29,351 nucleotides of DNA from a virus, in the UHGV virus genome UHGV-0299584; one strand, 5' to 3'. Shown here in pieces: positions 9,424 through 21,391 of this stretch; the stretch's first letter is position 1; each line of letters starts with the position of its first letter. A program made the translations under genes and the position numbers. Below the pieces are notes generated by a model that was not told where the DNA came from, searched no databases, and saw nothing but the letters and a program-made list of their open reading frames with translations.

Positions 9424-9696
9424 ATGACACACATGATCTTTCGTCATGGCGACATGAAGAAATGGAAAGGCGTTGGATACGACTTTGAAATCGTGAAAGC
9501 CGAAGAGCTTCAGGAATATCTGGATGCTGGCTGGTTTGCACATCCTGATGATCTTCTGAAGGATGTTGCAGAGCCAGAGCCAGAGCCAGAGCCAGAGCCA
9601 GAACCAGAGCCAGAGCCAGAGCCAGAAGAAAAACAGCGTAAAAAGCCTGGTCGAAAACCTAAGGCGGCAGCAGATGAACCTGACAACGAAGGGTGA
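9424..9696 (+). CDS. Small acidic protein with (Glu-Pro)n linker repeat
   Basis: ATG 9424 with GGAGA RBS. Product [38 protein letters not shown]... then an EP dipeptide run, then the basic tail [11 protein letters not shown]. Overlaps the gp4 start. Confidence 0.6.
9571..9624 (+). repeat. Tandem hexanucleotide repeat (GAGCCA)x9, one unit GAACCA
   Basis: Nine contiguous 6-nt units read directly from the sequence, in frame as Glu-Pro. Confidence 0.95.
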
Positions 9697-17128: not shown

Positions 17129-18790
17129 ATGACAGACATTACAGCCAATGTTGTAGTGAGTATGCCTTCGCAACTCTTCACTATGGCGCGTTCTTTTAAA
17201 GCGGTTGCCAATGGCAAAATTTATATCGGTAAAATTGACGCTGACCCGGTAAATCCTGAAAACCAGATTCAGGTTTATTTAGAGAACGAAGACGGCTCTC
17301 ACGTTCCTGTATCGCAACCAATCATCATTAACGCTGCTGGTTACCCGGTATATAACGGACAGATCGCCAAATTCGTTACTGTACATGGCCATTCTATGGC
17401 TGTTTATGATGCGTACGGTGCTCAGCAGTTCTATTTTCCTAATGTGCTGAAGTACGATCCCGATCAGCTTAGATCACAGATAGAATACGGGCAGTATATT
17501 CACATTCCTGATGGTTATTCACATTATGATGAGTTTGATAATATTCCTCTGAATATATTGGGTGTGGATTATAGTCCTGTTAATGTATATGATGTTTCTT
17601 ATGATGTGTTGACTGGTATATTTAAAGTTTCTGTTCAGAATGCAGATAATTTTCATGTTGGTAAATATTGTATACTTTCTGGCAGGAGAGACATTTCATG
17701 TGGAGCGATGATAATTTCCAAGGATGGAAATGTTTTAACATTGGATATGAGTCACAATGGTATAATTTCAGGCCCGGTTAACGGGGTTGTGGCAAAACCA
17801 ATAAATTCCATAATAAAAACAACAAAAGGAATACAATTTAGATCAAATATATACAGCATAAAAAATGTTGCTATTGAAACAGATGGTGATTACGGACTCA
17901 TTATCGGAGGTGGATACTACCCTGATTCACAATGTGGTAGTTGCGTAGTTTGGGATGCAAACAATTTAATTGTAAATGGAGGCTCTGTTTGTGGAGTTCT
18001 TGTTTCTGGCTCTGGATCTCAGTTTTGTATCAATGAAGTTCATATTACTAACGCAAATATTTCGCTGGAATGTATTTACGCAGCTAGCGTGAAAGGTTTT
18101 TCATTTTCATCATACAATTCAAATGAAGACTCAATTAAGGTTGAGCATGCTTCATCTTGCTATATAAAAGAATTGTCAATTATAAAACCGAAAACTCAGT
18201 CTTGCGTAGCGGCTCGTTATTCATCATCTGTAGAGATATCTGATTGTTATATGGTTGGAAGTGAAGGTTCAGCATTTGCTACCAGCCAATTTTCCTCATA
18301 TTTATCATTAAGAAATATTGTTATGCTAGGGAGCGCAAAATATGCGATAAACTGCGTCGATGGTGCTGTTGTCGCAATAAATAATATCGACGCCTCTTTA
18401 GCTAAAGTGGATTATGGGGTAAGGGTTGAAAAACACTCAGTTTTAAGACAGGTAGGTATAAATAGCAATTTTTCAGGTTCTATTGCCGATTCGCTAATAA
18501 ATAACTCTCATGTTGATTTCAATGATATCGTGTTTTCTGGGAAAAAAATTAAATCAACAATTAATGTTGGTTCAATTAATCCAAACTCTAGATTTTCAAT
18601 TCAGAGGGTAGCTACTGGATATAAAATAGAAAATGAACTTCCAATCAATATGACGGTGTTAGGAGATCTGCCAATAGGGGTTATAACTGATGTATTGGCA
18701 ATATCAGACGACATGATTCGTGTTACATTCCAAAACACTAGCTCATCACCTGTTGATGTTGGCAGTGTTGATGTCATTATAGGATGGTAA
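17129..18790 (+). CDS. Tailspike: conserved head-binding domain fused to a divergent beta-helix receptor-binding domain
   Basis: First ~115 aa ([34 protein letters not shown]...VLKYDPDQ) match the P22/Sf6/HK620 head-binding domain as recalled. The remainder is AT-rich, Ser/Asn/Ile/Gly-rich and shows no recognisable similarity to P22 gp9. GGAG RBS. Confidence 0.85.
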
Positions 18791-18840
18791 TAATACTAAA
18801 AAGTAGATTTATTTTGTAAGTTTTTTATTATTGTTTATAA

Positions 18841-18859
18841 GGCCAAAAAACTTTTGGCC
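18841..18859. terminator. Palindromic hairpin between convergent tailspike and acetyltransferase genes (putative bidirectional terminator)
   Basis: GGCCAAAA-aac-TTTTGGCC, an 8-bp perfect stem in an AT-rich context between two convergent stop codons. Confidence 0.45.
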
Positions 18860-18875
18860 TTATGCTAAATGAGAT

Positions 18876-19469
18876 TTATAGTAATCGCCTATCCCATTTC
18901 ACACCTGTTTTGATTATTTTTGCTGGAGTACCAGCAATAATAATATTGCTTTCAGAAAATTTACCAGTTACAGTTGCCCTTGCGCCAACAATAGTTTCAT
19001 CTGGAATAAAGGCACCTTTCATGATGAGCGCATCAAGACCAATCCAGCACTTATCTCCTATTGATATGTTTTTTGCTGGATTTATCCTGTTTCCATCCAT
19101 ATCTGTTATTGAATGTGAGTCTGTTGTTCTTATTTGAACGCCTGACGCAAACATGCAATTAACACCAATTGAAACACTAGTCCCCTCTTGAATGTTTATA
19201 TTGGTGTTCTGAAAGCTTGTAAGGCTTGATATCACGAGACAGTTCCCATCGCCTCTCATATTTACAGAGCCAACTATAGAACACCTCTCACCGATATTAA
19301 TAGTATTATTATCACCATTTATCAAAATGGATAAATTATGTATTTTTGCATGCTTTTCTATATTTATATGATTGTTCTTTCCATTAATGCGAATAGATAT
19401 TTTTTTTATGTCAGCATCAACATGATTTATAGAGTTATTTTCTCCGGAAATCTGTTTTATTATATCCAT
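18876..19469 (-). CDS. Hexapeptide-repeat (left-handed beta-helix) acetyl/acyltransferase, moron
   Basis: Product shows periodic [LIV]-G-x4 hexads (INIGERCSIVGSVNMRGDGNCLVISS..., ISIGDKCWIGLDALIMKGAFIPDETIVGARATVTG) typical of the LacA/WcaF/CysE-type family. AT-rich; sits between tailspike and int. ATG 19469 preferred over TTG 19481. Confidence 0.7.
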   Translation of the reverse strand: MDIIKQISGENNSINHVDADIKKISIRINGKNNHINIEKHAKIHNLSILINGDNNTINIGERCSIVGSVNMRGDGNCLVISSLTSFQNTNINIQEGTSVSIGVNCMFASGVQIRTTDSHSITDMDGNRINPAKNISIGDKCWIGLDALIMKGAFIPDETIVGARATVTGKFSESNIIIAGTPAKIIKTGVKWDRRLL

Positions 19470-19783
19470 CACTATACTCAATTATTTTGATTGATTTATT
19501 TACAACTTATTAATGTATATGTCATAAATTATATCATAATTTTAATAAAAATCAATATACGAGGTTTTGCATGTATATATTGTAATTTATTGCATATGTT
19601 GATAATAAATTTTATTTGATGCTTAACATAATTATCATGAAATTAGTTATTCAATAACTCTTGTTTTTTAATGTGACAATCACGTTGCTTATATTTAATA
19701 ATGAAACTATATGGTTTTATTATTAAATTTGTGTTTACCTAGATGAATTAATTGTTTTATTTATGATTTTTATCATGGAATCA

Positions 19784-20941
19784 TTAATCCACCTTTTCAT
19801 CAACCCAATCCGCCCACCACTGCATCATTTCTCTGCGCTTATCGAGATACTGAGCATGGTTGTAAATCCCGCGCACAGATCCGCCGTTGGCATGTGCCAG
19901 TTGCGCTTCAATAGCATCAGCAGGCCATTCGTGCTCGTTCATAATCGTGCTGAATTCATGCCTGAATCCGTGACCGCTTTCCAGACCCTCATAGCCGATT
20001 TGTTTGATCACAAGTAGCACCGCGTTCTCGCAGATTGGCTTTTTCTTATCGTTGCGCCCGGCAAAAACAAACTCTGATACTGGTTTGGTGATTGAACTTA
20101 GCGTAGTGAGAAGTTCAACTACCTGGTCTGACATAGGAACCACATGAATTTTGCGTCCCTTCATCACACTGGCGTCGATGGTGATAATCCTGTTTTCAAA
20201 ATCGACGTTCTTCCATAGCATGGAACGAAGCTCTTTCGTTCTTAGGGCTGTGTAGCGTAAAACTTTGGTCGCAATGAGCGATACGATACTTCCTGAAAAT
20301 GTTGCCAGTGCTTTGTTGAATGCCGGGATCTGGTCTGCAGGAAGAAACGGGAAGTTCTTCTTGCGGTATCCCTTCATGGCGTCAGCAAGGTCAGGTGCCG
20401 GGTTATATTTAGCCCTACCAGTGACAATAGCGTAACGGAAAACCTCGCCGCATCTTCTGCGGGCTTTGTTGGCTCGCTCCATTGCACCGCGATCTTCAAA
20501 TCTGCGGATTACTTCCAGTAGTTGCATCGGCTCAATATCCTGAATTTCAAGACCGCCGATGATGGGTAAAATGTCGTCATCAAACATTTTTGCAAGTTCA
20601 TTTGCATAGCCTACTGACCAGACTTGCTTCTTGTGCTCGTACCATTCCTTGTAAATGGCGCTAAAGGAATTGTTGTTAGACGAAGCCTTTTTCGCCTTTA
20701 CCGGATCGATGCCAACCGAGATGTCTTTCCTCGCAGTCCATGCTTTATCCCTTGCCTCTTGCAAAGTCATAAGCGGATATTTTCCGACGGTCAGTATTTT
20801 CTCCTTACCGTCAATCTTGTAGCGAAGCTGCCATACCTTTTTCCCTGACACAGGGACATAAAGGTACAGGCCATTACCATCGAGTAGGCGGTATGGTTTT
20901 TCTTTCGGTTTTGCTGCTTCAATCTGCTTAACGGTGAGCAT
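19784..20941 (-). CDS. int: Tyrosine integrase (P4-like family)
   Basis: Product has the typical N-terminal arm (LTVKQIEAAKPKEKPYRLLDGNGLYLYV) and C-terminal catalytic region (...HGFRHEFSTIM..., ...RGIYNHAQYLDKRREMMQWWADW). Start ATG 20941, or GTG 20977 as in the ORF track. Confidence 0.9.
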   Translation of the reverse strand: MLTVKQIEAAKPKEKPYRLLDGNGLYLYVPVSGKKVWQLRYKIDGKEKILTVGKYPLMTLQEARDKAWTARKDISVGIDPVKAKKASSNNNSFSAIYKEWYEHKKQVWSVGYANELAKMFDDDILPIIGGLEIQDIEPMQLLEVIRRFEDRGAMERANKARRRCGEVFRYAIVTGRAKYNPAPDLADAMKGYRKKNFPFLPADQIPAFNKALATFSGSIVSLIATKVLRYTALRTKELRSMLWKNVDFENRIITIDASVMKGRKIHVVPMSDQVVELLTTLSSITKPVSEFVFAGRNDKKKPICENAVLLVIKQIGYEGLESGHGFRHEFSTIMNEHEWPADAIEAQLAHANGGSVRGIYNHAQYLDKRREMMQWWADWVDEKVD

Positions 20942-20986
20942 GGGTAAAAATCCGGTGGGTAAAATTATTTTATCCACTTTTTACCC
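20942..20986. repeat. Cluster of TTTTACCC / GGGTAAAA octamers (putative arm-type Int-binding sites)
   Basis: GGGTAAAA at 20942-20949 and 20957-20964; TTTTACCC at 20979-20986, read directly. Confidence 0.4.
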
Positions 20987-21102
20987 GTCATGTAGTGCGG
21001 CTGTCAACGATCTGACGCGAACCATGACGAACTGTAAATCTACGGAAGGCTTGATATTCAGGGGATTTTGCGGACTGGTACGGATGGGAGCGAACTGATA
21101 AA

Positions 21103-21117
21103 TGGTGTCCCCTGCAG
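21103..21117 (-). other. attP core: 15-nt identity to the 3' end of tRNA-Arg (argW), flanked by an 8-bp inverted repeat
   Basis: The - strand reads CTGCAGGGGACACCA, matching the acceptor-stem/CCA end of E. coli argW from memory. TCCCCTGC (21108-21115) and GCAGGGGA (21134-21141) form a perfect inverted repeat; phage genes lie on both sides. Confidence 0.6.
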
Positions 21118-21176
21118 ACATCTACTTGAGGCGGCAGGGGATTGATTGGAATGGTGTTTTTTAGATGTGAAAAATA

Positions 21177-21196
21177 TTTTACCCGCTATTTTACCC
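21177..21196. repeat. Two further TTTTACCC octamers on the other side of the attP core
   Basis: TTTTACCCG at 21177-21185 and TTTTACCCA at 21189-21197, same motif as flanks the int start. Confidence 0.4.
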
Positions 21197-21391
21197 ATTG
21201 GCGCGGCTTAAGAGCTTATTTTTGAATTCACAATGGTCACGATATAACCATCTTGCTCGCCCGTGGATAACTTTGGCTTTAGGTAGGTCTCCGGACTTAA
21301 TCCGGTCATAGATGAAGGTCTTACCGAAGCCAGTATCGGCCATGATGAATTTCAAATCAACCAGGGAATCAGGCTGTAGTTCGTGTTGCAT
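21191..21391 (-). CDS. AlpA-family DNA-binding protein / putative excisionase
   Basis: 66-aa product with a helix-turn-helix (FIMADTGFGKTFIYDRIKSGDLPKAKVIHGRARWLYRD) resembling AlpA/Xis proteins that partner P4-like integrases; adjacent to attP. Confidence 0.65.
   Translation of the reverse strand: MQHELQPDSLVDLKFIMADTGFGKTFIYDRIKSGDLPKAKVIHGRARWLYRDHCEFKNKLLSRANG

Follow-up and report, generated by a model that had tools for sequence, protein, structure and literature searches.

What kind of element occupies the short non-coding stretch between the integrase gene and the small gene to its right in the UHGV virus genome UHGV-0299584, and how would such a phage enter and leave the host chromosome? 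The window analysed here is the whole 29,351-nt stretch of this genome, and a sequence-only reading had placed a phage attachment site with an argW-like core at positions 20942-21197. Based on our own comparisons, 20942-21197 is, at a probability of about 0.95, the attP of a P22-like (Lederbergvirus) temperate phage carrying the IntS/TorI module of Sf6, HK620, CUS-3, Kapi1 and KplE1, and none of the results contradicts this reading. The identities, junctions, attB, motif conservation and co-variation were computed here, and protein binding and regulation are taken from the KplE1 and HK620 publications.

Gene neighbourhood and source phage

The window is a mosaic P22-like (Lederbergvirus-type) temperate coliphage that targets argW and is presented in the non-integrated gene order. 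Its first part encodes an Rz spanin, a Rha-like regulator, terminase, portal, coat, tail and injection genes and a tailspike with a P22 head-binding domain, and these are followed by a small acetyltransferase gene, int, the attP region, torI, early-left genes and, at the right end, a cI-like repressor with cro. No tRNA genes were found in the window. For the whole window the closest phage was Louie (95.6% identity), and its match spans just 57% of the first 25 kb; taken as one genome, the phage is thus a new mosaic. Over int-attP-torI alone, identity to Sf6, HK620, IME10, N7, HK633 and others was 96-98%.

The integrase gene int (intS; 19784-20941, minus strand) encodes a P4-type heterobivalent tyrosine integrase of 385 aa, which is 97-99% identical to the integrases of HK620, Sf6 and HK633 and carries the Pfam domains Arm-DNA-bind_3 (PF13356, 2.1e-25), Phage_int_M (PF22022, 4.5e-28) and Phage_integrase (PF00589, 3.1e-39). 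On the other side of the site, torI (hkaC, Sf6 gene 18; 21191-21391, minus strand) encodes the recombination directionality factor (RDF), identical to K-12 TorI at 66 of 66 residues and matching PDB 1Z4H with an E value of 6.6e-43. An AlpA-like gene had been proposed at this place; the gene is there, and its identity is TorI. The 66-aa protein had no match to Pfam AlpA or any other Pfam family at E<=0.001.

Several other features of the mosaic were observed. The 201-aa acetyltransferase gene (18876-19481, minus strand), located between tailspike and int, is of the hexapeptide-repeat type (WbbJ or maltose-acetyltransferase-like) and sits in an AT-rich island at about 17500-19900, in which the GC content falls to 0.21-0.35. 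It is probably a lysogenic-conversion moron, because it occupies the oac/gtr conversion-gene slot of Sf6, although its enzyme family differs. NeuO-like heptanucleotide repeats were looked for near this gene and none were found. The tailspike (17129-18790, plus strand, 553 aa) matches known tailspikes mainly through the N-terminal P22 head-binding domain (residues 1-113), and its receptor-binding part matches a PHROG annotated with colanic-acid-degrading activity. A small ORF at 9425-9696 (plus strand), between the coat gene and the gp4-like head-tail adaptor, contains about ten tandem GAGCCA copies (9569-9626) that encode a (Glu-Pro)n tract, and the gene for the adaptor probably starts at 9674, not at 9563.

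The core and its identity with argW

The complete attP (20942-21197) is composed of a P' arm on the int side, the core and a P arm on the torI side, and it is ~97% identical to the attP regions of Sf6 and HK620. The core, that is, the attP/attB identity block, lies at 21102-21117 on the minus strand and reads CTGCAGGGGACACCAT in tRNA orientation (16 nt). Within this block, positions 21103-21117 (TGGTGTCCCCTGCAG on the plus strand, reverse complement CTGCAGGGGACACCA) agree at every base with the 3'-terminal 15 nt, CCA included, of a tRNA-Arg(CCT) gene that ARAGORN predicts in E. coli 90-1, in which the matching 15 nt are locus positions 1704-1718 of the tRNA at 1704-1778, and the identity with the window ends exactly there. 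The argW (tRNA-Arg(CCU)) 3' end, which had been assigned to 21103-21117, was confirmed by this identity to a called gene; as for the length of the core, the 15-nt argW match holds, and attP and attB share one nucleotide more, 16 in total (17 in some hosts).

Published annotation agrees with these positions. The 'attP core' features in the GenBank records of HK620 and Sf6 fall on window positions 21102-21117, and the 'attP' repeat features of HK620 map to 20941-20987 and 21175-21197. The KplE1 core is the identical 16 nt CTGCAGGGGACACCAT (PMC2951348), and for Kapi1 a 17-nt duplication has been reported, 1 nt longer than the 16-nt block (PMC8787464).

The Klebsiella phages vB_Kpn_Chronis and RCIP0114 have attP cores reading AAGTGTCCCCTGCAT, with only 12 nt (GTGTCCCCTGCA) in common with argW. 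Since these cores lack the CCA end, integration at argW would leave the tRNA gene without an encoded CCA, or another site is used. Two exact-pattern scans of genome contigs for attL junctions of these Klebsiella relatives (core GTGTCCCCTGCA), meant to delimit the crossover more closely, found none.

Junctions and the empty site in host genomes

The attP region was matched in 1901 of the 5426 complete E. coli genomes, the number of matching genomes being 1901 in the attL-side search and 1555 in the attR-side search. Among the partial matches listed, those of attL end at 21117, beside intS and the tRNA-Arg gene, with two exceptions that run to 21122, and those of attR begin at 21101-21103, beside torI and dsdC; the attR sequence of K-12 reads dsdC...caagg-ATGGTGTCCCCTGCAG-acatc.... 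The 16-nt block at 21102-21117 is common to attP, attL and attR, because the attL identity ends at 21117 and that of attR begins at 21102. An attB was rebuilt by joining the dsdC flank of attR and the argW side of attL at the core, and this 238-nt sequence exists at 100% identity, the empty attB being found in 912 of the 5426 E. coli genomes. Host junctions had been named as a check on the mapping, and both outcomes bear it out: the breaks fall at the core block and the rebuilt attB occurs verbatim.

The mapping predicts intS at the attL-argW end and torI at the attR-dsdC end of the prophage, and in the prophage examples intS indeed lies at attL beside argW and torI at attR beside dsdC. In E. 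coli 1190, a tailspike-acyltransferase-intS block 99.1% identical to that of the window is integrated beside argW-yfdC, so the expected position of int at the tailspike end of the prophage was seen in a real argW prophage.

Putative arm-type sites

Five copies of one octamer lie within the attP. In the P' arm, TTTTACCC is found on the plus strand at 20979-20986 (probably P'1), where it overlaps the int promoter -10 and is invariant at 8/8 positions, and the minus-strand copies, which read GGGTAAAA on the plus strand, are located at 20957-20964 (probably P'2; 7/8 invariant, one of the enriched octamers) and at 20942-20949 (probably P'3; 8/8 invariant), the latter abutting the int start codon. 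The P arm carries two plus-strand copies of TTTTACCC, at 21177-21184 and 21189-21196, spaced 12 bp and each invariant at 7/8 positions. The names P'1-P'3, and I1-I5 below, were assigned from the text descriptions in PMC2951348, where every P' arm site of KplE1 contains TAAA and P'1 overlaps the -10 box of the int promoter.

Counted over the whole window on both strands, the octamer occurs 7 times where 0.66 copies would be expected, and none of 100 shuffles contained as many, which establishes the enrichment and the five attP copies that had been described; the distance given for them, ~120 bp on either side, was too short for the left-hand copies, which lie 116-160 bp from the core. The remaining two copies are at 20564 (within int) and 14760. 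Conservation was analysed in an alignment of seven phages, including two Klebsiella and two Erwinia phages at ~75% identity, in which the five octamers are invariant at 7-8 of 8 positions and the surrounding sequence drifts. Over the non-coding stretch of this alignment, 78 of 89 named-feature positions are invariant versus 51 of 160 elsewhere (Fisher p 2e-18).

The repeats also change together with the integrase. In Salmonella g341c, the Int of which is 61% identical, the core is still argW, and repeats at the same positions and spacing read TTATGCCC/GGGCATAA, with TTATGCCC at the places of both P-arm octamers. Over the 86-aa arm domain of Int, identity is 74-77/86 where GGGTAAAA is kept, 49/86 in g341c (GGGCATAA) and 39/86 in P4, the arm repeat of which is GCCCCC-rich, so that the arm repeat changes in step with the divergence of the integrase arm domain. 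Enrichment, conservation, co-variation with the arm domain and the Arm-DNA-bind_3 domain of Int all bear on the proposal that the octamers are arm-type Int sites and uphold it, and the five copies fit putative arm-type IntS sites.

A sixth copy inside int (20564-20571) was considered as a functional site and rejected: it encodes a conserved Ile-Leu-Pro, and it is lost through synonymous changes in the Klebsiella and Erwinia phages and in HK620. It is best read as chance. The position of this copy is annotated as an attP repeat by HK620, and P4 has an analogous one.

Predicted TorI sites and int promoter

The P' arm also contains five predicted TorI sites, which together with an int promoter inside the attP were absent from the earlier description. 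Three of them, I5, I4 and I3, occupy 21008-21032 on the minus strand (GATCG at 21008-21012, GTTCG at 21018-21022 and GTTCG at 21028-21032) with a 10-bp period, and I4 and I3 are 5/5 invariant in the seven-phage alignment. The other two, I2 and I1, occupy 21071-21095 on the minus strand (GTCCG at 21071-21075 and GTTCG at 21091-21095), 20 bp apart. In KplE1, three TorI sites are 2 nt apart and adjacent to the -35, and the other pair is described as 'separated by 12 nt' (PMC2951348); the pentamers and spacings found here equal this published arrangement, and the I1-to-I3 offset of 63 nt equals that of the published KplE1 coordinates (2464409 versus 2464472). Across the seven phages, four of the five TorI sites are fully or nearly invariant.

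The predicted int promoter, PintS (20979-21007, minus strand), is composed of a -35 TTGACA at 21002-21007, a 17-nt spacer and a -10 GTAAAA at 20979-20984. By sequence match, the -35 abuts the GATCG of I5 (21008-21012) and the -10 lies inside the octamer at 20979-20986, as in the published KplE1 layout, in which the -35 is beside I5 and the -10 within P'1. The -35 (TGTCAA on the plus strand) is 6/6 invariant in the seven-phage alignment, and the 'prophage excision' promoter of HK620 maps to window positions 20958-21007. A generic sigma-70 scan missed the published promoter, because its -10 is poor, and proposed ATGACG-16-AATAAT instead; the placement given here follows the published description and not the generic scan.

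The inverted repeat

In the window TCCCCTGC occurs once (21108-21115), within the core, and its partner GCAGGGGA occurs once, at 21134-21141 on the plus strand. The two arms form a perfect 8-bp inverted repeat as had been reported, and of 50000 shuffles, 635 (~1.3%) produced an equally long perfect repeat linking the core to a flank no more than 70 nt away. The repeat was said to flank the core, which it does not, because its first arm lies inside the core, the other arm being 18 nt to the right. In the seven-phage alignment the distal arm is invariant at 7/8 positions versus 6/18 in the 18-nt spacer, and g341c retains it at a spacing of 24 nt. On the minus strand, in the direction from torI to int, the repeat would form an RNA hairpin of -16.5 kcal/mol (z -3.15) with no U-tract after it. 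The distal arm overlaps a weak IHF-like match, AATCAATCCCCTG (21135-21147, minus strand, read by eye). A third copy of CAGGGGAT was seen in the P' arm at 21058-21065, in the same orientation as that in the distal arm (21135-21142), and of this copy only GGG is invariant in relatives.

Whether the conserved distal inverted copy of core sequence, GCAGGGGA, kept in Klebsiella, Erwinia and Salmonella attPs, is a functional element that the papers examined leave undescribed is doubtful, and we raise it only tentatively. Were it functional, it could be an extra IntS core-type site or a host-factor site required only in attP and attR, or it could form the stem of a hairpin in transcripts reading from torI across the site into int. 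If the hairpin reading is true, int would be expressed differently from a joined and from a split site, an arrangement comparable to lambda sib.

Alternative readings of the motifs and of the window

Each group of motifs admits another reading. Instead of recombination sites, the octamers might be plain promoter or operator elements, or they might reflect a coding sequence such as the hkaB or gene 17 ORF. Indeed, one octamer overlaps the int promoter -10 and IntS is published to repress int via that site, and the hkaB-like ORF (21058-21198) begins with MGK, which is encoded by an octamer. But two octamers lie beyond the core, on the side away from the int promoter, in g341c the whole set of five has changed along with the arm-binding domain of Int, and operator and arm-site roles are compatible, the published model having both. 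As for coding, two stops interrupt the hkaB frame in Erwinia phage 49, the residues conserved in this frame fall on DNA motifs, and the sole octamer in true coding sequence (20564) is the one lost by synonymous changes in relatives, HK620 included. We therefore give the promoter or coding reading almost no weight against arm-type IntS sites. The hkaB or Sf6 gene 17-like ORF, which spans the P arm and core on the minus strand, was rejected as a gene in view of the stops in Erwinia phage 49; its conservation tracks the DNA motifs (MGK equals the octamer and CLQGT the core), and it is probably an annotation artefact. The inverted repeat, in turn, could represent the core-type Int sites C and C', with TCCCCTGC and GCAGGGGA bracketing the crossover, and its perfection, chance level of ~1.3% and conserved distal arm in diverged attPs speak for this. 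The overlap regions of tyrosine recombinases are 6-8 bp, and the spacer of 18 nt (24 in g341c) is far beyond this length, shows little conservation (6/18) and is not part of the attP/attB identity, one arm falls within that identity block, attB has no partner arm, and the attP of P4 has no equivalent of the repeat. A C/C' pair is ruled out by this geometry, and we consider it very improbable. A different, imperfect dyad would suit a crossover within the core: GGTGTC (21104-21109) and GACATC (21117-21122) bracket CCCTGCA at 21110-21116, from which we infer a 7-bp strand-exchange (overlap) region with the arrangement GGTGTC|CCCTGCA|GACATC over 21104-21122. Within the identity block CCCTGCA takes the position closest to the tRNA 5' end, inside the 12 nt that all relatives keep unchanged, and the dyad matches at 5/6 positions here, at 6/6 in Erwinia phage 49 and g341c and at 3-4/6 in three other phages (n=8).

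A further alternative concerns the origin of the DNA. The attP is uninterrupted, with phage genes on both sides and no host DNA in the window, so the window is not a single integrated prophage, and it likely derives from packaged, circular or excised DNA. The claim of a phage and not a prophage configuration holds to that extent, and it was too strong in one respect: an intact attP also occurs between tandem prophages in chromosomes, so that free phage DNA is the likely source and not a proven one. A chromosome with two or more tandem argW prophages, the intact attP lying between the copies, would look the same over this site, and an uninterrupted attP was found in 17 of the 5426 complete E. 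coli assemblies, some of them 39-kb separate replicon-like records and several of them chromosomes. E. coli no107 shows, at intervals of 38.6 kb, the succession attR(torI), prophage, int-attP-torI, prophage and intS-attL-argW-yfdC. Such arrays are nevertheless rare: split sites occur in ~1900 genomes, tandem arrays in at most 17. Neither a bacterial gene nor a tRNA nor a second att site is present in the 29 kb of the window, and from lysis genes to cI/cro its genes follow the vegetative P22-type map. In the no107 assembly many genes are frameshifted, so the tandem seen there may be an artefact of assembly. A tandem origin is accordingly unlikely, and free phage DNA is preferred as the source of the window. 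In no107 itself (NZ_CP075374.1, 1520-1599 kb), attR-torI is at 1520.9 kb, attP at 1559.4 kb and intS-attL-argW at 1598.1 kb, which amounts to two tandem copies of a related prophage at argW, real or an assembly artefact.

Proposed mechanism

The argW attP would work as follows. The N-terminal arm-binding domain of IntS may bind the five TTTTACCC arm-type sites and its catalytic half the core, and IntS would exchange strands with the 3' end of argW tRNA-Arg(CCU) inside the 16-nt block at 21102-21117. At attL, the 15 terminal nucleotides carried by the phage would restore argW, and the identity beyond the 7-bp overlap would serve to rebuild the tRNA 3' end. After integration, int would be at the attL end with the conversion gene and tailspike beside it, and torI at the attR end beside dsdC. 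For excision, TorI is expected to bind the five GTTCG-type sites in the P' arm; IHF aids KplE1 excision in vitro. The promoter lies in the P' arm, where an arm site holds the -10 and a TorI site adjoins the -35, so that both IntS and TorI would repress int, as the same promoter arrangement makes them do in KplE1. In this way the mapping explains why int carries a promoter of its own that is autoregulated. Assays of recombination and protein binding have been published for KplE1 and HK620 substrates, and the sequence described here is ~3% different from the sites studied.

Comparison with known systems

The argW attP described here is already known, because the module is annotated in HK620 and Sf6 and has been biochemically dissected in KplE1 and HK620. 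A later review counts the IntS/TorI module among the few fully characterised heterobivalent recombination sites, and the window adds nothing new on site-specific recombination, since the site organisation of the module was already characterised experimentally. What the case does illustrate is that an attP can be mapped correctly from sequence alone. All the sequence features of the module that were compared are present: the 16-nt argW core, the attP between int and the RDF gene, an IntS-type Int and a TorI-type RDF, five TorI sites (GTTCG, GATCG, GTCCG) in two int-side blocks, a promoter overlapping the P' arm and, in E. coli genomes, argW junctions with an empty attB.

As compared to HK620 (AF335538) and Sf6 (AF547987), nucleotide identity is ~97% over int-attP-torI, and the 16-bp core, arm repeats, int promoter and gene order are alike. 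The few point differences fall outside the octamers, the core and the TorI pentamers, and HK620 lacks the octamer copy inside int; the surrounding phage is a different mosaic with a different conversion gene and tailspike. KplE1 (CPS-53) of E. coli K-12 shares the core CTGCAGGGGACACCAT, an identical TorI and five TorI sites in two blocks of equal spacing, and is also alike in the TAAA of the P' arm sites and in the int promoter within attL (Panis et al.; PMC2951348, PMC3509656). KplE1, however, is a 10-kb defective prophage with split attL and attR, whereas the window holds the joined attP in an apparently complete phage.

The satellite P4 (X51522) has an integrase of the same family, with the Arm-DNA-bind_3 N-domain, 34.6% identity and an autoregulated int, and its attP layout is similar, with two arm repeats, a core from a tRNA 3' end, and three arm repeats reaching the int start codon. 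The features of P4-type integrases were found here, namely arm-binding and catalytic domains and an arm motif that is repeated left and right of the core and changes with integrase specificity. P4 differs in its leuX target and 20-bp core, in a 12-mer arm repeat rich in GCCCCC, in having no inverted core copy, and in encoding its excisionase Vis elsewhere. The attP of lambda resembles this one in having arm-type sites on either arm and excisionase sites on one of them, a heterobivalent integrase and help from IHF. Unlike in lambda, the target here is the asymmetric 3' end of a tRNA gene and not an intergenic site, the int promoter is autoregulated and inside the site, and the attP lies between int and the excisionase gene, so that integration separates these two genes and int has its own promoter in the site.
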